Source: a virus
Taxonomy: Duplodnaviria; Heunggongvirae; Uroviricota; Caudoviricetes
Length of the DNA: 28,026 nucleotides
Direction: 5' to 3' (one strand)
IMG/VR virus record: IMGVR_UViG_2636415477_000009
Span: 1-28,026 of that record
Shown here: piece by piece, positions 3,337 to 23,967 of the stretch
Layout of the letters: each line of letters opens with the position of its first letter
Numbering within the stretch: the stretch's first letter is position 1
Position numbers and translations under genes: made by a program
The notes under the pieces: model-generated
Told to the model about the DNA's origin: nothing
What the model saw: only the letters and a program-made list of their open reading frames with translations
Database searches by the model: none

Positions 3337-3555
3337 TTACATCCACATAATTTGCTGCCCTGACGGCAACGGGTGCGGCCTTACTGCGTGGACTTCTCCC
3401 GGCTTCACGATGTATCGCTGTACCGACTCATAAGTGATGAACGTGGCGCTGCAATTCACGTTCTGACACTGGTGATAACGCTCTTTTGTCGTGTCAGTGA
3501 TATAGCGACTTGTACGCGCATGTGCGGCATGCTGGCATAAAGGACAATGAAACAT
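3337..3555 (-). CDS. ogr: Ogr late-gene transcriptional activator (zinc finger)
   Basis: 72-aa product MFHCPLCQHAAHARTSRYITDTTKERYHQCQNVNCSATFITYESVQRYIV... matches P2 Ogr; Cys4 zinc finger. The tracked ORF extends upstream, but the conserved protein starts at the internal ATG at 3555. Confidence 0.9.
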   Translation of the reverse strand: MFHCPLCQHAAHARTSRYITDTTKERYHQCQNVNCSATFITYESVQRYIVKPGEVHAVRPHPLPSGQQIMWM

Positions 3556-3636
3556 CGCGAGCACCTCTTCCGGTTTTGTTGATGGTGCCATTTTAGTTAA
3601 TTTATCCTTACAAAACAAACAGATAAATAAAACACA

Positions 3637-3818: not shown

Positions 3819-4568
3819 TCACTGATCTCCTTCGGTCAACGGAGATTGTATTTTCCGCATTGATTCTCCTTTAAGTTCGATCTTGATACTGCCATGAACC
3901 AGTCGATCTAGGATGGCATCCGCATGTGTGGAGTCTCCGATCATTTTGTACCAGTTTTCCACCGGCAACTGGCTCACTACGATGATTGAGCCTCGTTGGT
4001 ACATCAGATCCACTATTTCCAGCAGGTCGCTACGCTGTTCTGATGAGAGAGGTTCCAGCCCCCAGTCATCCAGAAGCAGCAGATCGCTATTATTCAGCCT
4101 GGTCAAAAGTTTGCTGTATCTTCCATCAGCATGCCCCTGATAGCACTGTTCCATCAGCGCTTTAAGGCGATAATAGTAGACCTTGTATCCCTGTCGGCAG
4201 GCATTATGACCAAGTGCACATGCCAGGAACGTTTTACCGCTGCCGGTGGCCCCGGTCAGTAAAATATTTTGTTTCAGGGTTAACCAGTTTCCCTGACTGA
4301 GTGAACGGATGAGGGCCCTGTCCAGCCCTCTATTGTTACGATAATCCAGCTTTGATAACTCAGCATTAAGTCTGAACCGTGCATGTTTGATCAGACGCTC
4401 TGCCTTCCTGTTTTCACGGCAGGTTAGTTCTTCTGCTGTCAGTAATGACAGGCGTTCTTCGAAGCCCAGCTCCTGGTATGTGCCCGGCTGAGCAAGTTGC
4501 TTTTTAAGCGCATCACGGAAGCCGGTGAGTTTAAGTGCGGTCAGTTGTTCGTAAAGATGATTCATCAT
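3819..4568 (-). CDS. istB: IS21-family helper ATPase IstB
   Basis: 249 aa; Walker A LLTGATGSGKTFLACALG and Walker B LLLLDDWG; overall resemblance to IS21 IstB. Confidence 0.85.
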   Translation of the reverse strand: MMNHLYEQLTALKLTGFRDALKKQLAQPGTYQELGFEERLSLLTAEELTCRENRKAERLIKHARFRLNAELSKLDYRNNRGLDRALIRSLSQGNWLTLKQNILLTGATGSGKTFLACALGHNACRQGYKVYYYRLKALMEQCYQGHADGRYSKLLTRLNNSDLLLLDDWGLEPLSSEQRSDLLEIVDLMYQRGSIIVVSQLPVENWYKMIGDSTHADAILDRLVHGSIKIELKGESMRKIQSPLTEGDQ

Positions 4569-4579
4569 TGGATCCCGTA

Positions 4580-6121
4580 TCAGTGGTAATACTCACTGCC
4601 GCGTACGTTTTCGTGTTCCATCGTGGATAACAGATCTGGTTTTGGATCCTGAACAGGTTGTTTATCCAGACCTTTTTCCAGGATCGATTTAATACCTGAC
4701 AGACGCCATACCTTTGTTTTCAGAGCTCTTGCACATGCTGCATTAAGTCTGGCTTTACTGTATTTTTTATGAAGGTTCAGGAGTCCAAGGCAGAAGCGAT
4801 AGCTTTGTTCCGGATGTGGACGAGAGTTCAGTATATGAAGCACATAACTATGAGTTTCACTGCCTATGTGCCCCGCCCATTCCAGAAGACGCTCTGGCGT
4901 CCAGGTGGCATGCTGTCGATGAGCTTCAGGCATGTGCTCGTTGCGGGTACTGTAGCCATAAGTACGCTTGCGCGGGTGCACAGCAACCTCCTGCCCCTGA
5001 TTGAAGAGTCTTACCAGTTCTCCGGAGATCCATGCTTCCAGTTGCTGGCCTAACAGCGAACATGGAACCGAGTAGTAATGTTTGTCGATTTCCACGTGGT
5101 AATCGGCATGAACTCTGACTTTCTTCACCAGGGTGTAACTGTAACTGGCTTCAGGAAGAGGCTTCAGTGCGGGTTTATCAAGCTGGATGAAGAGTTCTGC
5201 ACGTGAATAACCCAACTTCTGCATTATTTTGTTATTCAGTCTTTCCAGCAACTCCCGAATGCGCTGATTAAGCGATGCAAGGCTGTAGAAGATCTCATGC
5301 CTGATTCGGGCCATGATCCAGCGTTCAACAACCTGAACGCCAACTTCAGCTTTGGCTTTATCTTTCGGTTTACGTGGCCGCGCAGGCAAAACTGCGACAT
5401 TATAATGCTCAAGCATCTGCTGGTAGGTAGGGTTAACGTCAGGATCATACTTACATGCCCTGGATGTGGCGCTTTTCAGATTGTCCGGAACAACAAGTTC
5501 AGGAACGCCACCCAACCACTGGAAGCAGCGAACATGACTCATCACCCAGTCTTCAAGCTGCTGAGACCAGGTGGCCTCTGCCCATGTGTAACTTGATGCC
5601 CCGAGAACAGCTACGATGACCTGAGCAGTTCTTATTTCTCCGGTCTCAGGGTCGGTAACGCCAACGGTAGGTCCACAGTAATCAACGAAAAGTTTTTCGC
5701 CAGCTTTATGTACCTGACGCATTGATGGTGAAGTGGTTTTGAGCCATTCACGGTACATCCGGCAGTAATGGTTATAGCTGTAAAAACCGCCTGGATTACG
5801 CTCACAGTATTCTTCCCAGAGTAGCTGCAGCGTCACGCATTTATTACGCAGTTCCCGGTGTACTGTAGCCCAGTCAGGCAGAGAGTGCTTCTTCATCTTA
5901 ACCTGGGTCTGAAGGAACGCATGTTTTAGTTTTGTATCATCCCATCCTGTAGGTAAGGGCCACTGCTTTATGCCAAGTTGAGCCGCCCGATTAGCATATC
6001 TGGATACAACGGAAGGGGAGATTGCAAGACTACGACCAATTTGTCGATGGCTGAGTCCAACACCGTATTTAAGCCTAAGAATTTCTTTAAGTTTTCTCAT
6101 AGAAATTGGAACTGTTGGCAT
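4580..6121 (-). CDS. istA: IS21-family transposase IstA
   Basis: 513 aa; N-terminal HTH (LSHRQIGRSLAISPSVVSRY) and an integrase-core-like middle region; sits 12 bp upstream of istB on the same strand. Confidence 0.8.
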   Translation of the reverse strand: MPTVPISMRKLKEILRLKYGVGLSHRQIGRSLAISPSVVSRYANRAAQLGIKQWPLPTGWDDTKLKHAFLQTQVKMKKHSLPDWATVHRELRNKCVTLQLLWEEYCERNPGGFYSYNHYCRMYREWLKTTSPSMRQVHKAGEKLFVDYCGPTVGVTDPETGEIRTAQVIVAVLGASSYTWAEATWSQQLEDWVMSHVRCFQWLGGVPELVVPDNLKSATSRACKYDPDVNPTYQQMLEHYNVAVLPARPRKPKDKAKAEVGVQVVERWIMARIRHEIFYSLASLNQRIRELLERLNNKIMQKLGYSRAELFIQLDKPALKPLPEASYSYTLVKKVRVHADYHVEIDKHYYSVPCSLLGQQLEAWISGELVRLFNQGQEVAVHPRKRTYGYSTRNEHMPEAHRQHATWTPERLLEWAGHIGSETHSYVLHILNSRPHPEQSYRFCLGLLNLHKKYSKARLNAACARALKTKVWRLSGIKSILEKGLDKQPVQDPKPDLLSTMEHENVRGSEYYH

Positions 6122-6235
6122 AGGTATCCTTTACCGGAATGGCAAAAGATACAGATCAACACACCTGTGAAGTTCCAATAACATTGATGGAGATCACTGA
6201 ATAACAAAATGAGTCAAAAGTGATCTCCATCGATG

Positions 6236-6946
6236 TTATTCAGCGATCTGTTCAAATGTTATTACCCGATCTCGATGGAAGTTATTGAGTGATCTCCTTT
6301 CATGAAAATACGCATGTGCAGTGTATTTCCCGTTAGCAAGGTCATATGCTGCTTTTACCGCTTTTGGTGTTGCGGCGAGTGTTTCAGACGTGCTGTTGGT
6401 CGCACTGCTTAACTGAGTAAAACCTTTTGCGGTCAAAGAAGCGTCCGGGTGACGTCGTGACTGTTCATGTTCTGCAATTTTGTCATCAACGTAATCCTGC
6501 GTTGCCATCACCGTTGTGGTGTCAATAGTCAGCTCCACTGAGGCCACACTGCTGACGATGATGACCATGCGGCAGGTCTGCGAACGCCCTGAGCCTTCGG
6601 CAAGGGCAGGTTTATAACTTTCGGCCATGTTCGCCACGGCAATTAACGTTCCCGCATCATCGTACAGGCCAAGCTCTCGCATCCAGAAACCGCCCACCTC
6701 CGGCGGAATAACCAGCTCTGCGATAATATAATTACTGTTTCGTTTGTCCTGGCTGATTTTGTTCAGCGCATGTCGCCAGACTTCATGGATAAGTCCGGTC
6801 TGTCCGGCATCCGGGACAGGCAATTTACCACCGCCATCCCCGACGGCCATCGTGGTAATGTTGACCTTCCGCCCTCCCGGTGCGGTTGCCGCTGCCAGCT
6901 TTGCTGCACCGGCAGTGGTGATAACGGTTCTGAATTTTGTGCTCAT
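6236..6946 (-). pseudogene. Truncated tail fibre gene H (N-terminal ~210 codons) reading into the IS end
   Basis: N-terminus MSTKFRTVITTAGAAKLAAATAPGGRKVNITTMAVGDGGGKLPVPDAGQTGLIHEVWRHALNK... matches P2 gpH, which is about 669 aa. After ...DLANGKYTA the frame runs into IS inverted-repeat sequence and stops at 6236. Confidence 0.75.
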
Positions 6947-15639: not shown

Positions 15640-15812
15640 TGTCAGGAGTCCTGAATAGTGATTAGAGGAGTCACATGTCGGCATCAGTTTCCCGACGATG
15701 CGCATCCTCCGCCATCAGTCCCGGATGGCTTATCACTGACACAACAGCACCTTAGCGAATCGCGGGGCGCGACTCAGTAGCCTTGCCGTGTATTCATCAC
15801 GGCGAGGTATTC
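15640..15812. promoter_or_regulatory. Divergent late-promoter region between gpO and gpP (expected Ogr-dependent)
   Basis: Intergenic region between the divergently transcribed O (minus) and P (plus) operons, where P2 has its Ogr-activated late promoters; the activator-site dyad itself was not confidently identified by eye. Confidence 0.4.
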
Positions 15813-17585
15813 ATGACCATCACCACAGACACCACTCTTTTGCACGACCCGCGTCGTCAGGCGGCGCTGCTGTACTGGCAGGGGTTTTCCGTGCCGCAGA
15901 TTGCCGCCATGTTGCAGATGAAACGCCCGACGGTGCAGAGCTGGAAACAGCGCGACGGCTGGGACAGCGTTGCCCCCATCAGCCGTGTCGAAATGAGTCT
16001 GGAAGCGCGGCTGACCCAGCTCATCATCAAACCGCAGAAAACCGGCGGTGACTTCAAGGAAATTGACCTGCTCGGACGCCAGATTGAACGACTGGCACGG
16101 GTAAACCGCTACAGCCAGACCGGCAACGAGGCAGACCTTAATCCGAACATCGCTAACCGCAACAAAGGCGGGCGGCGCAAACCGAAAAAGAATTTTTTCA
16201 GTGACGAGGCTATCGAAAAGCTGGAGCAGATTTTCTTTGAGCAGTCTTTCGAATATCAGTTGCACTGGTATCGCGCCGGGCTTGAGCACCGCATCCGCGA
16301 TATCCTGAAATCCCGCCAGATTGGCGCGACGTTTTATTTTTCCCGCGAGGCGCTGCTGCGCGCCCTGAAAACCGGTCATAACCAGATTTTTCTGTCGGCC
16401 AGTAAAACGCAGGCGTATGTGTTCCGCGAATACATCATCGCCTTTGCCCGGCTGGTTGACGTTGACCTGACCGGTGACCCGATTGTCCTGGGCAATAACG
16501 GCGCAAAACTGATTTTTCTCGGCACCAACTCCAACACCGCGCAGAGCCATAACGGCGACCTGTACGTCGACGAGATTTTCTGGATACCGAATTTTCAGGT
16601 ACTGCGTAAGGTGGCATCAGGTATGGCCTCACAGAGTCACCTGCGCTCGACCTATTTCTCCACCCCGTCCACGCTGGCGCACGACGCCTACCCGTTCTGG
16701 TCGGGTGAACTGTTCAACCGGGGACGCGCCAGCGCCGCCGAACGCGTGGAAATCGACGTCAGTCATAACGCTCTTGCCGGTGGGCTTCTCTGTGCGGACG
16801 GTCAGTGGCGGCAGATTGTCACCATTGAGGACGCGCTGAAAGGCGGCTGCACGCTGTTCGACATTGAGCAGCTCAAACGCGAAAACAGCGCCGACGATTT
16901 TAAAAACCTGTTCATGTGTGAATTTGTTGACGACAAGGCGTCAGTGTTCCCGTTCGAGGAGCTGCAACGCTGCATGGTCGACACGCTGGAAGAATGGGAA
17001 GACTACGCGCCGTTTGCCACCAATCCGTTCGGCTCCCGCCCGGTATGGATTGGTTACGACCCGTCACACCGTGGCGACAGCGCCGGATGCGTGGTGCTGG
17101 CACCGCCGGTGGTGGCCGGTGGCAAATTCAGAATACTTGAGCGCCATCAGTGGAAAGGCATGGACTTTGCCACCCAGGCGGAATCCATCCGCAAACTCAC
17201 TGAAAAATACAACGTCGAATACATCGGTATTGATGCCACCGGCCTCGGTGTCGGCGTGTTCCAGCTCGTGCGCTCGTTCTATCCCGCCGCGCGCGATATC
17301 CGCTACACGCCGGAAATGAAAACCGCAATGGTGCTCAAGGCAAAAGACGTTATCCGCCGTGGCTGTCTGGAATATGACGTCAGCGCCACCGACATCACCA
17401 GCTCGTTTATGGCTATCCGCAAGACCATGACCAGCAGCGGACGCAGCGCCACCTATGAGGCCAGCCGCAGCGAGGAAGCCAGCCACGCCGACCTCGCCTG
17501 GGCGACCATGCACGCCCTGTTAAATGAGCCACTCACCGCCGGTATCAGCACCCCGCTGACATCCACCATTCTGGAGTTTTACTGA
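15813..17585 (+). CDS. Terminase large subunit (ATPase) gpP
   Basis: About 590 aa from the internal start MTITTDTTLLHDPRRQAALLYWQGFSVPQIAAMLQ...; matches P2 gpP. Confidence 0.9.
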   Translation: MTITTDTTLLHDPRRQAALLYWQGFSVPQIAAMLQMKRPTVQSWKQRDGWDSVAPISRVEMSLEARLTQLIIKPQKTGGDFKEIDLLGRQIERLARVNRYSQTGNEADLNPNIANRNKGGRRKPKKNFFSDEAIEKLEQIFFEQSFEYQLHWYRAGLEHRIRDILKSRQIGATFYFSREALLRALKTGHNQIFLSASKTQAYVFREYIIAFARLVDVDLTGDPIVLGNNGAKLIFLGTNSNTAQSHNGDLYVDEIFWIPNFQVLRKVASGMASQSHLRSTYFSTPSTLAHDAYPFWSGELFNRGRASAAERVEIDVSHNALAGGLLCADGQWRQIVTIEDALKGGCTLFDIEQLKRENSADDFKNLFMCEFVDDKASVFPFEELQRCMVDTLEEWEDYAPFATNPFGSRPVWIGYDPSHRGDSAGCVVLAPPVVAGGKFRILERHQWKGMDFATQAESIRKLTEKYNVEYIGIDATGLGVGVFQLVRSFYPAARDIRYTPEMKTAMVLKAKDVIRRGCLEYDVSATDITSSFMAIRKTMTSSGRSATYEASRSEEASHADLAWATMHALLNEPLTAGISTPLTSTILEFY

Positions 17586-18619
17586 TGAGCAAGAAAAAAG
17601 GGAAAACACCGCAACCTGCGGCAAAAACAATGACCACCAGCGCCCCGAAAATGGAGGCATTCACCTTTGGTGAGCCGGTGCCGGTACTCGACCGCCGTGA
17701 CATTCTGGATTACGTCGAATGCATCAGTAACGGCAGATGGTATGAGCCACCGGTCAGCTTTACCGGTCTGGCAAAAAGCCTGCGTGCTGCCGTGCATCAC
17801 AGCTCACCGATTTACGTCAAACGTAATATTCTGGCCTCGACATTTATCCCGCATCCGTGGCTTTCCCAGCAGGATTTCAGCCGCTTTGTGCTGGATTTTC
17901 TGGTGTTCGGTAATGCGTTTCTGGAAAAGCGCTACAGCACTACCGGTAAGGTCATCAGACTGGAAACCTCACCGGCAAAATATACCCGCCGTGGCGTGGA
18001 GGAGGATGTTTACTGGTGGGTGCCATCCTTCAACGAGCCGACACCTTTCGCGCCCGGCTCCGTGTTTCACCTGCTGGAGCCGGATATCAATCAGGAGCTG
18101 TACGGCCTGCCGGAATATCTCAGCGCCCTTAACTCTGCCTGGCTGAATGAGTCGGCCACGCTGTTCCGCCGCAAGTATTACGAAAACGGCGCACATGCCG
18201 GATACATCATGTACGTCACCGATGCCGTGCAGGATCGCAACGATATCGAAATGCTTCGCGAAAACATGGTGAAGTCGAAAGGCCGCAACAACTTTAAAAA
18301 CCTGTTTCTCTACGCCCCACAGGGAAAAGCCGACGGTATTAAAATTATCCCGCTCAGTGAAGTGGCAACGAAGGACGATTTTTTTAATATCAAAAAAGCC
18401 AGCGCCGCAGACCTGCTGGACGCGCACCGCATCCCTTTTCAGTTGATGGGCGGCAAGCCGGAGAACGTCGGGTCGCTGGGTGATATTGAGAAAGTGGCAA
18501 AGGTCTTTGTCCGCAATGAGCTTATCCCGTTACAGGACAGGATCCGCGAGATAAACGGCTGGCTCGGTCAGGAGGTCATCCGCTTTAAAAACTACTCACT
18601 GGACACTGACAACGGCTGA
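17585..18619 (+). CDS. Portal protein gpQ
   Basis: 344 aa; matches P2 gpQ; start overlaps the P stop. Confidence 0.9.
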   Translation: MSKKKGKTPQPAAKTMTTSAPKMEAFTFGEPVPVLDRRDILDYVECISNGRWYEPPVSFTGLAKSLRAAVHHSSPIYVKRNILASTFIPHPWLSQQDFSRFVLDFLVFGNAFLEKRYSTTGKVIRLETSPAKYTRRGVEEDVYWWVPSFNEPTPFAPGSVFHLLEPDINQELYGLPEYLSALNSAWLNESATLFRRKYYENGAHAGYIMYVTDAVQDRNDIEMLRENMVKSKGRNNFKNLFLYAPQGKADGIKIIPLSEVATKDDFFNIKKASAADLLDAHRIPFQLMGGKPENVGSLGDIEKVAKVFVRNELIPLQDRIREINGWLGQEVIRFKNYSLDTDNG

Positions 18620-18788: not shown

Positions 18789-18807
18789 GTGCTTTCCCCG
18801 CCTCGCC
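18789..18807. other. cos site (19-nt cohesive-end sequence)
   Basis: gtgctttccccgcctcgcc is the reverse complement of the P2 cohesive end GGCGAGGCGGGGAAAGCAC as I recall it; position next to Q matches P2. Confidence 0.75.
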
Positions 18808-19011
18808 CGCCCGCTTCGTGGGGCGGTTTTAATGCAGATGCATGTGAACACTCGAGATTGACTGGATAAGACCTAAGGTGCATTAATTTTTTGTTTTTTT
18901 ACATGCAGTTTGATGCAAGAACATGCCCTCTAAAGTCTTGGTTTAATGTGCTACACTTTTATACAAACCTATGATAAAAGCGATAAAAAATCTTCCATTT
19001 TGGCGAACATT

Positions 19012-19995
19012 ATGACGGATATTGAAACAGCTCGATGGAACACAGAAAGTGCCGCTTTGTTGGCACTATCAGAAATACATGGCGTTAGTTATTGGACTCT
19101 ATATAAAGTTGCTCAAAAGGGAATCAGATTTAGAGACATTGTTACCAGCCAAACATTAGCCAACTTTGAGTATCTACTTGGAGTAAAACTTCATCGCCAA
19201 CCTTATTATTTGAATGAAGGCAATTGGTCTGTTTTTCGGGACAGCATGATTTCTACGGCTAAAATATTACTCACACATTATCATAATAGTGGTTACAAAA
19301 TCATCCACCATGGTTCTCCGAGCTATCCAGACAAGTTGAATGACCTGTCTGAGCCGCCTTTCTGGTTGTTTGCTCAAGGCAATGTATCCTTGCTAGATAA
19401 AAAGTGTGTTGGAGTTGTCGGCACCAGAAACCCAACCGCACTTGGAATTTATTTAACTCAAGCAGTAATCTCGCAATTTATAGATTCGGATTATTCAACT
19501 GTAAGCGGTTTAGCATATGGTATAGATCAATCTGCACATGAAGCATCCCTGTTATTTAAAATACCGACAATTGCTGTGTTAGGTACTGGCGTAAACTCAA
19601 ATTATCCCAAAAATAGTGGCGAGATGAGAGGCCATATTGTAAATAATGGCGGACTGATTCTTACTGAGTATTTACCAAACCAAAAACCATCACAGGAAAA
19701 CTTTGTTCGTAGAAATAGAATTCAAGCAGCTTTAAGTGATGTATTGATCCCAGTTGAATGGGGCCTAAAAAGTGGGACATCTCATACTGTGAGATATGCT
19801 GCTCAATTAAAAAGAGCGATACTTTGTCCTTTACTTAGGGGAACTACACCTCAAGAAGAGATTAAACATGCCTTGTCAGAGTACTCAGCTACGATAATGA
19901 ATATTCCACTATCCGATTTTAAAGACGTGCAAAGCTTAATTAAATCAGCATCCGGTGTAAAAACACAGCAACTTTCTCTTCTGGGAGATGAATAA
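19012..19995 (+). CDS. DprA/Smf-like (SLOG-type Rossmann fold) protein; first gene of the hotspot cargo operon
   Basis: Motifs matching the DprA family: PDKLNDLSEPPFWLFAQGNVSLL, GVVGTRNPTALG, SGLAYGIDQSAHEASL, IAVLGTGVNSNYPKNSGEM, ENFVRRNRIQAALSDVLIPVEWGLKSGTSHT. AT-rich. Start uncertain: ATG at 19012 (MTDIE...) preferred, upstream in-frame ATG at 18946 possible. Confidence 0.75.
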   Translation: MTDIETARWNTESAALLALSEIHGVSYWTLYKVAQKGIRFRDIVTSQTLANFEYLLGVKLHRQPYYLNEGNWSVFRDSMISTAKILLTHYHNSGYKIIHHGSPSYPDKLNDLSEPPFWLFAQGNVSLLDKKCVGVVGTRNPTALGIYLTQAVISQFIDSDYSTVSGLAYGIDQSAHEASLLFKIPTIAVLGTGVNSNYPKNSGEMRGHIVNNGGLILTEYLPNQKPSQENFVRRNRIQAALSDVLIPVEWGLKSGTSHTVRYAAQLKRAILCPLLRGTTPQEEIKHALSEYSATIMNIPLSDFKDVQSLIKSASGVKTQQLSLLGDE

Positions 19996-19996
19996 T

Positions 19997-21271
19997 ATGT
20001 ATTTAAAGGCAGTTATATTTTCAATCGCAGATGTTGTATTACCATTAACATCTAACACTCAACCTCAGGAACTAAAATCTAGAATCGACTCTGAATTACG
20101 TAAGTTGTTTGCGTTTTTGTCATCAAAAGGGATTAAAGTTATCTTCTTGACAAATAAAAATAGAAACGTGAGAACACATGACGGGATCGTAACACTAGAC
20201 GAATACCTAAAAAGGAAATTCCCAGAATCAATTCACTTTTGCCGTGAACTCGACAACAACATACCAGCAAAACAAACAGGGAAGGCCATAGATTTCATCA
20301 TGGCTGCGTTAGAATTAAAACGAAACGAAATGATCTATGTAGGGCGTTCTCAGGAAGACTTACAAGCAGCTACCAACGGGAATACCCTATTTATTAATGC
20401 GACCTGGTATGAACCGGTTACTGAGTACGGTTTTCAATTTTCAGAACCCAAAGAAATCGCTAGATTTATTGATGTCTTTTGCTTAAGAGAGCAGTTGTGG
20501 GGATGGCAAGGGCATTTTAATGAAGATGTTCACTACTACGCCTTAGCACCATTTAGCACATATGTCCCTGAATTTACAATGTATTCAGCCAATGCAAGAG
20601 ACCTCGCAAAGCTATCGGTTGGAAGCCCCGATTTTTGGATAAGATATCTTGGTGCTAGCATTTATTTCTCTGGCTTAAGTGAAGGAGCAAGTTTTATAAC
20701 CACCTACGTTGGACATAACGCTGAAGATCCTTATAAACTAGCAAACATTATGGAGCATGACCTAAAAGGTTTAGCAGTCTCATTCAAAGGAAAGTATCTA
20801 AAAGATCTATTCTTACGACATACAACAGCTATTAAATCACAGCAAGCTCGGATAGCTAAGCAAGAAGTAAACATCACATCTCAAATAAACACCGTTAATT
20901 TAAATCCTGCCCCTATTAAAAACCTCATCACCGGCGAAAGATATACCAACCCTCCTAAATTGAAAGGTAAGAAAATATTAGTTATTGATGATTTTTGCAC
21001 TGAAGGAAATGCTCATGAAACAGCCAGAATGTATCTAAAAGCTGCAGGCGCAAATGTAATAAATATATCGTGGTTAAAAACCATCAATCGTGACGTTTCT
21101 ATCTGTGAACCAACTCGCAAGATACGGCCATGGGAGGCCAATACACTTGATGTTGATGACATTAACTATGTCGGTACGATTGGTTATGCTGAAAATGTAA
21201 CTCACGGTAGTGCACCTCAAGTGTTATCAGAAAAAATTCAACAATATGATAACTGGGACTGGCCACAATAA
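19997..21271 (+). CDS. Phosphoribosyltransferase-domain protein (C-terminal type-I PRT motif; N-terminal ~300 aa unassigned, possibly degenerate HAD-like); second cargo gene
   Basis: C-terminal KGKKILVIDDFCTEGNAHETARMYLKAAGANV fits the PRPP-binding loop of type-I PRTases. N-terminus has AVIFSIADVVLPLT and MIYVGRSQEDL, weakly reminiscent of HAD motifs I and IV. SD-like gggag precedes the ATG at 19997; an ATG at 19988 overlaps the upstream stop. Confidence 0.7.
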   Translation: MYLKAVIFSIADVVLPLTSNTQPQELKSRIDSELRKLFAFLSSKGIKVIFLTNKNRNVRTHDGIVTLDEYLKRKFPESIHFCRELDNNIPAKQTGKAIDFIMAALELKRNEMIYVGRSQEDLQAATNGNTLFINATWYEPVTEYGFQFSEPKEIARFIDVFCLREQLWGWQGHFNEDVHYYALAPFSTYVPEFTMYSANARDLAKLSVGSPDFWIRYLGASIYFSGLSEGASFITTYVGHNAEDPYKLANIMEHDLKGLAVSFKGKYLKDLFLRHTTAIKSQQARIAKQEVNITSQINTVNLNPAPIKNLITGERYTNPPKLKGKKILVIDDFCTEGNAHETARMYLKAAGANVINISWLKTINRDVSICEPTRKIRPWEANTLDVDDINYVGTIGYAENVTHGSAPQVLSEKIQQYDNWDWPQ

Positions 21272-21287
21272 ATTAATCCCATAATTT

Positions 21288-21317
21288 AAAGTGCCCCCTA
21301 ATAATGGGAGGCACTTT
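21288..21317. terminator. Bidirectional terminator between the cargo operon and gene A
   Basis: Palindrome aaagtgccccc-taataat-gggaggcacttt with T/A runs on both sides, between convergent genes ending at 21271 (+) and 21447 (-). Confidence 0.55.
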
Positions 21318-21446
21318 AAATATTAAGAAGATAATGTCATTAAGCGAAATTTAACTATAATTTAAAACATTACAATTATTATTTTTTAAAGTTTACTATT
21401 ACCCAATCCATCAATAAGACCTGTATTTATTCGTAATTTAATAGCC

Positions 21447-23702
21447 TTACCACTCATCAATCACTGGATATTTGAATTTTTTATTATCATAAATCACCAT
21501 CGCCCCACGCGCCAGCGCCTCAAGCTCCCATCGCTGAGGCCTGATACCGTTCTGAGCAAGGTCAACGCGGATACGGGTAATTTGCAATCGTTCCGGCCGG
21601 GTCAGCCTGGCCGATGGTGCAATTTCATGTGGTTTTAACGGGCTTCCGTTTCTTTGCTGACGATTTGGTGTTCTCAGGCCGTGTTTTAATGCGCCCCTGA
21701 GCACCCTCACGACCTCCGGGTCATTCCATTCGATAACACCGTCATCAACCAGATTAAGCACTGCTGCGGCGTGTTCAGAAGGTGTGGGAGCCGGTAACGA
21801 AGTATCACCACTGGTGAGCTTTCCACAGTTATTGACAGGACTCCGAGGCGCGGCGATGCCGCTTTTTAAAGTCAAAGGCTCAACGACCGGCACTTTCGGA
21901 ACAATGCGCCAGTCCGTCGTTCTGGTGATATGAATATGACGCGCGCCGAGATGCGGCGCGTAAATGCCGACCACTCTCTCGACTTCTTCCTCGTACTCGT
22001 TAACTTCATCCGACGGACTACGGGCAACCCTGACAGTCTGACAATCGCGCGGGACATTTGCCCCGCCCTGCGCGCTGATATACAGCGCAAAATCGCCACT
22101 GTCTGCGGCGGCGCGTGCAGCCTCCACGCGTTCGTCAAATTCATCAGCAATGCTGACGCCGCGAGGCAATTTACGTAGCTCACGGTAAGCTCCCATTGTC
22201 GGCAGGCCAACCGTTTTAAATTGCGGGATGCGCCACGTTGACGCCCATGCGGTAACAGCCGCCGCAGTATCTTTCAGCGGTCTGCCGGTATCGTTATCGA
22301 GCTGACCGTCCAGTGCATAGCCGTCGATATTTTTTGAAATGTATTTCGCGATATATCCCGCAGCACCGCCCCGGTTAAGGTGTTTTGCCTGAAAACGGTT
22401 TCGCGCGGCTCCTCTTTCGTCGCCATCCTCTTTGAGCGCATAGCGACGCATGATTTCGATAATCTGGTTACGCTGGCGTGGATTACAAAAAAGCATCATA
22501 TGCCAGTGCGGCGTTCCGTCGTGGTGTGGCTCGACGACTCGCAAACCGTAGACCTGTAAATCATTATCCTTGAATGCCGTGCGCATCAGGCTCCAGATAC
22601 GGCAGAGATAACGCTGCGCATCCTTTGGATTAAATGCCTCATCGTTCCAGCCGTGATTAAGCTGGACGGTTTTACTTTCGCCTTTTCCGACCTGACGTGT
22701 CGGGTGATACTTTGACGGCGCGGTCAGCGTGATAAACATGCCCACATCGCCCTCTGCGGCGGCGTAACGCTCAATACCGGCAATGGTGTTCATCAGCTCC
22801 ATCCGGCGAATTTCAGGATTAGAAATACTGCCCATCACCTTACTGATAAGGTCGATGCGCTCGCCGGTTTCCCTGTTTTCAAGGTCACACGATTTAAGAA
22901 ATTCCAGATTTGCCTGGCGGCGCGCACGCACATCACGAATGGCATGTTTACTGGCATAAGGAGAACGGTCTTTATTGACCTCCCCGACAGCAATCAGTAA
23001 CGCCTCATGCCAGCGCATACGCTGGCCTTTAAGCTGATGAGTCCACCACTCATCGTTAAACAGACGGGCAATGGCAGAATATGCCTGCCTCGTGGTCATC
23101 TGTCCTTTACGGTATTTTTTCCAGTAGAGAGGGGAAATATTGAAAGCACGTGCAGCGCCAGCAACATGACCATACAGATGCGCCTGCGCCTCATCTGTAA
23201 ACAGCGATTCTTTCTCGCCATGTGCATCAACCCATGCATCGCAGAGTTCCTCATACATCATGAAAAGCTGCGATGAGATACGGGCGGCAAACTTTTTCAG
23301 CTCCTTGTCATTCATCCCCGGCAGACGCGCATAATGGTCACGCTCTGCCAGAAACAGCAACGACGCGTCGGTATTCATTTCATGGCGCTGATTCACGCGC
23401 TCAATACGCGGCCATAAACGGCGCTGAAAAGTGGATGTGAGGAAATAAAACCCGTGCACCGGGCTTTTATTGCGCCGGATGTAGTCATAGCGTGAAGTAA
23501 ACAGCGAGCGCAAAAAGTAAGGCAGGCGATTAATCGTGGATAAAACACCTTGCACCTGACGCATCTCGTCACGTGTAAGGGGTCTTTCGCGCCCGACGGC
23601 CTCGCGTGGCGCGTTCCATGCATAAGCACCGGTAAACGTCTCACCGGTGCCTGCGGCAAATACTGACGGAGGGACAAAACGCCCGGAGGCTTTAACGGCC
23701 AT
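21447..23702 (-). CDS. Replication initiation protein gpA (rolling-circle initiator)
   Basis: About 751 aa from the internal start MAVKASGRFVPPSVFAAGTGETFTGAYAWNAPREAV...; matches P2 gpA. The tracked ORF extends to 23744. Confidence 0.9.
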   Translation of the reverse strand: MAVKASGRFVPPSVFAAGTGETFTGAYAWNAPREAVGRERPLTRDEMRQVQGVLSTINRLPYFLRSLFTSRYDYIRRNKSPVHGFYFLTSTFQRRLWPRIERVNQRHEMNTDASLLFLAERDHYARLPGMNDKELKKFAARISSQLFMMYEELCDAWVDAHGEKESLFTDEAQAHLYGHVAGAARAFNISPLYWKKYRKGQMTTRQAYSAIARLFNDEWWTHQLKGQRMRWHEALLIAVGEVNKDRSPYASKHAIRDVRARRQANLEFLKSCDLENRETGERIDLISKVMGSISNPEIRRMELMNTIAGIERYAAAEGDVGMFITLTAPSKYHPTRQVGKGESKTVQLNHGWNDEAFNPKDAQRYLCRIWSLMRTAFKDNDLQVYGLRVVEPHHDGTPHWHMMLFCNPRQRNQIIEIMRRYALKEDGDERGAARNRFQAKHLNRGGAAGYIAKYISKNIDGYALDGQLDNDTGRPLKDTAAAVTAWASTWRIPQFKTVGLPTMGAYRELRKLPRGVSIADEFDERVEAARAAADSGDFALYISAQGGANVPRDCQTVRVARSPSDEVNEYEEEVERVVGIYAPHLGARHIHITRTTDWRIVPKVPVVEPLTLKSGIAAPRSPVNNCGKLTSGDTSLPAPTPSEHAAAVLNLVDDGVIEWNDPEVVRVLRGALKHGLRTPNRQQRNGSPLKPHEIAPSARLTRPERLQITRIRVDLAQNGIRPQRWELEALARGAMVIYDNKKFKYPVIDEW

Positions 23703-23967
23703 ATGAGCCAAAAGCCTCTGAACAACGCTTGCTGAGTTGCTCAACCTGCGCGTTTAAATCAGCAAAAGACTTTGCGCTTCCGGTCAGAATATCGTGATGC
23801 ATCAGGCCGGAAACGAGCTGGCTTAATTTCGGGTAATAACCAACCACCGCCAGCCATTCCTGACCGGCGTTTTTACCGCTTTCAGCTCTCTTTTTCTCGT
23901 GGAGAATAAACTGAAAGCTGTCACTGGTAACGACATAACGTTCGCCAATTTCAATACGAATACTCAT
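23692..23967 (-). CDS. Small early-operon protein (P2 orf83 position)
   Basis: 91-aa ORF overlapping the A start; one of four small ORFs between B and A, as in P2. Confidence 0.6.
   Translation of the reverse strand: MSIRIEIGERYVVTSDSFQFILHEKKRAESGKNAGQEWLAVVGYYPKLSQLVSGLMHHDILTGSAKSFADLNAQVEQLSKRCSEAFGSYGR

Follow-up and report, generated by a model that had tools for sequence, protein, structure and literature searches.

Results

The gene pair at 19012-21271 corresponds to ShosTA

We analysed a 28,026-nucleotide stretch of viral DNA (Caudoviricetes; IMG/VR record IMGVR_UViG_2636415477_000009, positions 1 to 28,026; hereafter 'the window') with a focus on two adjacent, co-oriented genes on its plus strand that form one operon: shosA (gene 1; 19012..19995), encoding a DprA-like antitoxin of 327 aa, and shosT (gene 2; 19988..21271), encoding a toxin with a phosphoribosyltransferase (PRTase) domain. 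Both genes are found at these coordinates, and their two-gene arrangement is not a chance pattern. Both proteins are matched over their full length by PADLOC models: the ShosA model PDLC02997 covers the gene 1 product over model positions 1-327 of 327 (E = 2.2e-231), and the ShosT model covers that of gene 2 (E = 4e-296). Furthermore, ShosA has the same sequence (100% identity) as PDB 9VZO and 8ZVA, and ShosT shares all of its 427 residues (100% identity) with 8ZVB/8ZVC/8ZVD and also matches 9W2P/9W2Q; crystal structures of proteins identical to the window pair were published in 2025-2026. Because of these end-to-end PADLOC matches and the full identity to the crystallised ShosA and ShosT, we identify the locus as the known ShosTA system; judged from its sequence, the pair is the named and structurally solved system itself, more than a relative of it.

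When compared with published ShosTA (E. coli APEC O1 and KTE181 alleles; PDB 8ZVA-D, 9VZO and 9W2P/Q), the window pair is the same in protein identity (100%), gene order, coupled junction, functional residues and location in the P2 hotspot. There is no protein-level difference; what differs is the carrier prophage, which in the window is defective. An earlier note on this DNA had described the locus as a phage-borne DprA-like and PRTase pair mirroring the competence partners DprA and ComF(C), and had called it unknown whether the module recognises single-stranded DNA (ssDNA) or acts on nucleotides. The observation is confirmed and the interpretation partly supported, as detailed below, while the 'unknown' is outdated for a named, structurally solved system.

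Sequence features of ShosA and ShosT

ShosA comprises a SAM-like N-terminal domain, a DprA Rossmann domain and a labile C-terminal tail. A longer open reading frame (ORF) for gene 1 opens at 18946; the Met at 19012 is the start used in RefSeq, in the PADLOC model and in PDB 9VZO. In good agreement with the DprA-like assignment of the earlier note, the protein matches Pfam PF02481 (DNA_processg_A) with an E-value of 9.8e-60 over model positions 3-209 of 212, and the DprA structures 3UQZ and 4LJR are among its sequence matches. ShosA is, however, not a bona fide DprA because it falls below both NCBIfam DprA equivalog cutoffs (TIGR00732, 171 bits vs 191.15; NF008007, 128 bits vs 495). It is best described as a DprA-family paralog, not as the orthologous DprA of transformation, and the possibility that gene 1 is the host's true DprA was rejected on the same scores. 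All the published functional residues (R139, R234, R261, K200, R206, L181 and F182) are intact, including those that bind DNA or RecA (R139, R234, R261, K200 and R206).

ShosT combines an N-terminal HAD-fold pyrophosphatase with a C-terminal non-canonical PRTase and measures 427 aa from its first ATG or 424 aa from a second one at 19997. Its Pfam matches are weak and sub-threshold, i.e. Pribosyltran in the C-terminal part (22 bits vs a cutoff of 26.3) and a HAD hydrolase in the N-terminal part. The PRTase-fold assignment, which the earlier note had made as well, is nevertheless secure because of the 100% identity to ShosT crystallised with phosphoribosyl pyrophosphate (PRPP). The PRPP-binding and catalytic residues R59, H243, K283, R288, D334 and D335 are intact. 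Across an alignment of 107 homologs, R288, D334, D335, T338 and G340 are invariant down to ~35% identity, and the AlphaFold model built from that alignment reached a predicted local distance difference test (pLDDT) score of 93.7, compared with 36.9 for a single-sequence run.

The two genes meet at a junction with the hallmarks of translational coupling (19983..19999, plus strand). As read from the sequence, a GGGAG Shine-Dalgarno motif (19983-19987) is followed by the first shosT ATG at 19988, the shosA stop codon TAA (19993-19995) and the second ATG at 19997. With the first ATG the genes overlap by 8 bp; with the second they are separated by a 1-nt gap and share the Shine-Dalgarno motif, which directly abuts the ATG at 19988 but precedes that at 19997 by 9 nt. 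RefSeq, PADLOC and PDB 8ZVB use the 19988 start (427 aa), whereas the annotation of phage 10W uses 19997 (424 aa), and every published ShosT residue maps onto the window ORF with an offset of +3, implying a start at 19997. A start of shosT at 19997 is favoured by the distance to the Shine-Dalgarno motif, by phage 10W and by the residue numbering in the literature.

The pair fills the gpQ-gpA cargo slot of a P2-like prophage

shosA and shosT are the only genes of a variable cargo island (18842..21474) in the P2 gpQ-gpA hotspot, the bounds of which are set by loss of homology to P2-like phages. In pairwise BLAST comparisons with phage 899 and PhiR44_1, both of which carry other cargo, homology ends at 18841/18842 and resumes at 21475-21486, delimiting a two-gene insert of ~2.63 kb. 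The island has a GC content of 37%, compared with 53-56% in the flanking phage genes. To its left lie the terminase gene gpP (15783-17585) and the conserved portal gene Q (17585..18619, plus strand; Pfam Phage_portal; ~97.7% identical to P2-like phages), and to its right the conserved replication gene A (21447..23744, minus strand; Pfam Phage_GPA, E = 3.2e-124; ~96.5-96.8% identical to P2-like phages), for which the listed ORF start may lie upstream of the true one. The hotspot flanks are about 96.5-97.8% identical to those of many P2-like phages (Peduovirus). A candidate cos match at 18789..18807 on the minus strand serves as the left anchor of the hotspot: it is an exact 19-nt match to GGCGAGGCGGGGAAAGCAC, which we take to be the P2 cos cohesive-end sequence, and it occurs once in the window and in none of 100 shuffles. 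In other P2-like phages the same slot holds different cargo, namely Fic/VbhT, a ParB-domain protein, paraMORC3 plus Dcm, cdtAB or an exoribonuclease. The cos-proximal gpQ-gpA region of P2-like phages was described as a hotspot of anti-phage systems by Rousset et al. (2022), and the window island fills this gpQ-cos-gpA hotspot. The location between gpP/gpQ and cos on one side and gene A on the other, together with the presence of an identical ShosT in the records of Peduovirus P24C9 and Escherichia phage 10W, bears out that the pair is phage-borne.

The AT-rich spacer between the convergent shosT and gene A contains a hairpin (21284..21321) with an RNA folding energy of -21.8 kcal/mol (z-score -6.0; none of 200 shuffles equally stable). 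We regard it as a candidate bidirectional terminator carried within the cargo; a terminator scan missed it because it has no clean T-run. A consensus promoter scan upstream of shosA returned no convincing sigma-70 promoter, with site counts no higher than in shuffles, and an Rfam scan of the island found nothing. At the right-hand edge, gene A has its stop at 21447, whereas homology to other P2-like phages is back only at 21475-21486. The replication gene thus ends in 10-13 codons that are part of the variable cargo and differ between phages with different cargo.

Elsewhere in the window, an IS21-family element in the 3819-6946 region (istA, 4580-6121, and istB, 3819-4568, both on the minus strand) has ogr (3337-3618) on one side and, on the other, a tail-fibre gene (6236-6946) truncated to a 236-aa N-terminal part. 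From the P2 layout, genes for tail sheath, tube, tape measure and gpD would be expected in this interval, but none of them is present there, and the same interval is ~7 kb longer in related E. coli prophages. This IS21-associated loss of tail genes indicates that the prophage is defective and yet has kept its defence cargo.

Distant homologs in other genera retain the gene order

A DprA-like gene directly before a gene for a HAD-PRTase protein, in the same order as in the window, is also found in a cyanobacterium, in Billgrantia (Halomonadaceae) and in Methylobacterium. The neighbours at these three loci include integrases, a resolvase, Abi_2, GmrSD, an SNF2/PLD helicase and a phage tape-measure gene, and in none of the three does a competence gene, such as comEC or comFA, lie beside the pair. 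In Cyanobacterium aponinum (locus L004, 410-6209) the ShosTA homologs adjoin an SNF2/PLD-domain helicase and an Abi_2 protein, and in Billgrantia (locus L006, 4022-9422) a GmrSD-like enzyme and a UmuD/IMS pair; both loci look like defence islands.

Activities reported for the identical proteins

The toxin-antitoxin behaviour and the anti-phage activity of ShosTA have been shown experimentally on proteins identical to those of the window, and by this identity they would hold for the window pair as well. Rousset et al. (2022) reported that a DprA plus PRTase pair from the P2 hotspot protects against T7 and lambda, and linked the pair to the shosTA, psyrTA and rqlHI toxin-antitoxin systems. Millman et al. 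likewise counted ShosTA among the defence systems; a ΔshosA construct proved unobtainable for them, possibly through toxicity. Expressed from its native promoter, the pair causes a ~10^6-fold drop in T7 plating.

Using the APEC O1 allele, Pu et al. (2025) found that ShosT is toxic on its own, that ShosA rescues the cells, and that the D331A/D332A substitutions (D334A/D335A in the numbering of the window ORF) abolish toxicity. ShosT binds PRPP-Mg, mutants of the PRPP site lose toxicity, and the pyrophosphatase domain merely enhances it. Cells that express ShosT show disturbed purine metabolism, filamentation and genome duplications (Pu et al. 2025), in good agreement with the suggestion of the earlier note that the module acts on nucleotides. 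DNA damage by ShosT is reported as well, as is its counteraction by ShosA without contact with the toxin. Working with the KTE181 allele, Yang et al. (2026) describe ShosT as a monomer and as a non-canonical PRTase whose sheet has six strands and whose pyrophosphate (PPi) loop is nine residues long.

The antitoxin is a DprA-like homodimer that prefers ssDNA over dsDNA, co-precipitates recombination proteins (Pu et al. 2025) and stimulates recombination between short repeats. Its antitoxin activity depends on dimerisation, on ssDNA binding and on direct RecA binding, none of which is dispensable, and excess ssDNA breaks the ShosA-RecA interaction (Yang et al. 2026). Reported as they are for an identical protein, ssDNA binding, dimerisation and RecA interaction should be properties of the window ShosA too, and the ssDNA-handling role foreseen in the earlier note is borne out. 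According to Pu et al. (2025), T7 Gp0.7, transcription/translation shut-off and the unstable C-terminus of ShosA jointly release the toxin. ShosT and ShosA failed to co-purify in the hands of Pu et al. (2025), and direct binding was again lacking in Yang et al. (2026); altogether, co-purification, reciprocal pull-down and co-crystallisation in two independent laboratories revealed no ShosT-ShosA interaction. The physical partnership, or heterodimer, that the earlier note envisaged is contradicted by these tests.

Resemblance of ShosT to ComFC and to salvage PRTases

ComFC consists of a zinc finger and a PRTase domain and binds both PRPP and ssDNA; an interaction with DprA has been reported for the ComFC proteins of two species, which agrees with the premise that ComFC works with DprA in transformation. 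At the sequence level, several results speak against a ComFC likeness of ShosT. A ComFC-type N-terminal four-cysteine zinc finger was not found in ShosT: its cysteines are scattered (positions 85, 165, 337 and 373), there is no CxxC, and the N-terminus is a HAD fold. The NCBIfam ComF model TIGR00201 does not match ShosT at E <= 1. Among the 107 homologs, 52 match that model weakly (best E = 0.002), whereas 96-98 match the HGPRT, OPRT and APRT models (best E = 2e-6). A profile of the ShosT homologs searched against PDB sequences retrieved no ComF chain at E <= 10 and only PRPP-loop-level matches to salvage PRTases and HAD phosphatases. When aligned by hhalign, the ShosT profile shares 34 columns with E. 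coli YhgH, a ComF homolog, and 40 with Apt at a higher score, with both alignments confined to the PRPP loop and too short to decide affinity. The ShosT PRPP loop, DDFCTEG, does align to that of YhgH, but a PRTase fold with a PRPP-binding loop is common to all type I PRTases and so does not discriminate.

Structure comparison gave a different ranking. In a Foldseek search of the ShosT model against solved structures, once ShosT itself and the HAD proteins are set aside, H. pylori ComF is the best match (7P0H; E = 3.4e-4, probability 1.00, 208 columns), a single-method match with a root-mean-square deviation (rmsd) of 6.1 Å and no reported query range. It ranks above PRPP synthetase and UMP synthase, and there is no APRT among the best 50 matches; Pu et al. 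(2025) judged APRT the closest fold to the ShosT PRTase. A search of viral folds (BFVD) with ShosT yielded HAD matches and marginal salvage PRTases (E ~0.06). ShosT and ComFC have each, in separate reports, been described as having a lengthened PPi loop, a loop that is long and flexible, and one or more extra strands on the core sheet, and neither ShosTA mechanism paper mentions ComF.

The evidence for a ComFC likeness is thus mixed: the resemblance proposed in the earlier note stands as the best non-HAD fold match, but not in the zinc finger, in the ComF family model or in the sequence profiles, where salvage models are stronger. That note had also stated that a lack of ComF-like features, of interaction and of ssDNA binding would speak against its idea; the two proteins do not interact and ComF-specific sequence features are missing, whereas the gene 1 product does bind ssDNA. 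One Foldseek ranking and the separately reported loop and sheet features would suggest that the ShosT PRTase groups with ComF-type, nucleic-acid-associated PRTases, that ShosA/ShosT is an offshoot of DprA/ComFC, and that the phosphoribose acceptor is DNA or a DNA-bound group, so that DNA is damaged directly by ShosT and mended by ShosA and RecA. We consider this extended proposal unlikely.

Compared with known systems, ShosTA shares with DprA-ComFC the pairing of a DprA-fold binder of ssDNA and RecA with a PRPP-binding PRTase-fold protein, and among solved structures no non-HAD fold matches ShosT better than ComF. ShosTA differs in that ShosA and ShosT do not interact physically, ShosT is toxic, has no zinc finger and does not match the ComF model, ShosA lies below the NCBIfam DprA cutoffs, the genes sit in phage and defence contexts, and the role is defence, not DNA uptake. 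PsyrTA and RqlHI likewise combine a DprA-like antitoxin with a PRTase-containing toxin, toxin-antitoxin behaviour and an anti-phage role; ShosA matches the PADLOC PsyrA model (E = 3.8e-24), but ShosT does not match the PsyrT model, and the PRTase is fused to a superfamily II (SFII) RecQ-like helicase in PsyrT/RqlH and to a HAD pyrophosphatase in ShosT. The PRTase-like effectors of Type III retrons, likened to ShosT by description, are also PRTase-fold proteins of anti-phage or abortive-infection systems, but their partners are a reverse transcriptase, multicopy single-stranded DNA (msDNA) and winged-helix proteins instead of a DprA-like antitoxin. Finally, APRT and other salvage type I PRTases have the core fold and three PRPP-binding loops in common with ShosT and provide its strongest sequence-profile matches, with sequence similarity limited to the PRPP loop; in contrast to them, ShosT is monomeric, has a six-stranded sheet, a long flexible loop and a PPi loop of nine residues, and did not bind any purine with which it was tested.

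Discussion

In this study we have traced a phage-borne DprA-like and PRTase gene pair to a known defence system. We hold with high confidence that the locus is ShosTA, a type IV toxin-antitoxin system in the cos-adjacent cargo slot of a P2-like prophage, which shields the lysogen from other phages via abortive infection. What the earlier note overlooked is precisely this abortive-infection logic, with ShosT as the toxin and ShosA as the antitoxin, along with the N-terminal HAD-type pyrophosphatase domain of ShosT and the known P2 defence hotspot.

A plausible course of events can be outlined. ShosT would use PRPP, with the fused pyrophosphatase drawing the reaction forward, so that nucleotide pools are disturbed and DNA is damaged; in the uninfected cell, ShosA and RecA-dependent recombination would continuously mend this damage. 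Upon infection, shut-off of host transcription (as by T7 Gp0.7) may keep the cell from replacing ShosA, which is intrinsically unstable, and/or ShosA may be competed off RecA by phage ssDNA. ShosT persisting after the loss of ShosA would then kill or arrest the cell before the phage spreads. Experiments on identical proteins have established the components and their activities; how the events are ordered and by what chemistry the cell is killed is what we infer.

Several observations weigh against this account. In both mechanism papers, binding of ShosT was seen with no purine that was tried, and no product was found. The two papers stress different triggers, Gp0.7 transcription shut-off in one and ssDNA competition in the other, and T7 SSB alone is not a trigger although escape mutations map to SSB. 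Pu et al. saw no early collapse of the culture of the kind typical of abortive infection. Lastly, the prophage is defective owing to the IS21-associated loss of tail genes, and expression of ShosTA and its benefit in the window's host are presumed.

Alternative explanations divide on what ShosT does and for whom. A partnership of the DprA-ComFC kind, in which ShosA senses phage ssDNA and, in a heterocomplex, hands it over to or activates the PRTase protein as a sensor-effector module repurposed from competence, would accord with the DprA-ComFC interaction reported in two species, with the binding of ssDNA and PRPP by ComFC and of ssDNA by ShosA, and with H. pylori ComF as the top non-HAD solved-structure match of the ShosT model; the idea of DprA as a sensor of phage DNA that switches on the PRTase was first put forward by Rousset et al. 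However, the co-purification, reciprocal pull-down and co-crystallisation tests of two laboratories found no complex, ShosT is toxic alone and is suppressed, not activated, by ShosA (with ΔshosA constructs unobtainable), and ShosT has neither the ComFC zinc finger nor a match to the ComF family model. This heterocomplex explanation is largely refuted already and, in our view, extremely improbable. Alternatively, ShosT might be a nucleic-acid-directed, ComF-type PRTase whose acceptor is DNA or a DNA-associated group and not a free purine, damaging DNA directly while ShosA and RecA repair it. Such an activity would fit the failure to find a purine acceptor despite the essential role of PRPP binding in toxicity, a phenotype of DNA damage and duplication, and an antitoxin that is a recombination mediator never touching the toxin; it would also fit the ComF fold match, the lengthened PPi loop, long flexible loop and extra core-sheet strand(s) in which ShosT and ComFC are alike, and the binding of ssDNA by ComFC. 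Metabolomics, however, indicates purine metabolism, sequence profiles prefer salvage PRTases over ComF, the Foldseek match comes from a single method at 6.1 Å rmsd with no reported query range, nucleic-acid binding by ShosT has never been reported, and Pu et al. named APRT as the closest fold, which together make a nucleic-acid acceptor distinctly unlikely.

As a further alternative, the pair might chiefly serve the prophage itself, as a stabilising addiction module or by helping recombination, and act on other phages only incidentally. ShosTA is indeed a true toxin-antitoxin pair, its antitoxin is labile, ShosA promotes short-repeat recombination, and the pair has been kept in a prophage stripped of tail genes, all of which would suit such a role. 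Against it stand the slot, a validated reservoir of anti-phage systems, the ~10^6-fold reduction of T7 plating from the native promoter, and the defence-island contexts of the distant homologs, and we regard a mainly prophage-serving function as very unlikely. Addiction and defence are compatible with each other, and defence of the lysogen by ShosTA is the reading that we retain.

At the level of the locus there is no novelty: the pair had already been named, validated and crystallised. The analogy with competence is not new in kind either, since Iyer et al. (2017) drew it for the sister system RqlHI/PsyrTA when they set ComFC/ComFA beside RqlHI, in which a helicase-PRTase goes with DprA. The same island (at least 80% coverage) is present in 30 of 5,426 complete E. 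coli genomes, where the RefSeq labels read only 'DNA-processing protein DprA' and 'hypothetical protein'; given these generic labels, the value of the locus lies in its correct annotation. Finally, the ComFC analogy and the Foldseek ranking suggest nucleic acid as a candidate acceptor class for phosphoribose transfer by ShosT.

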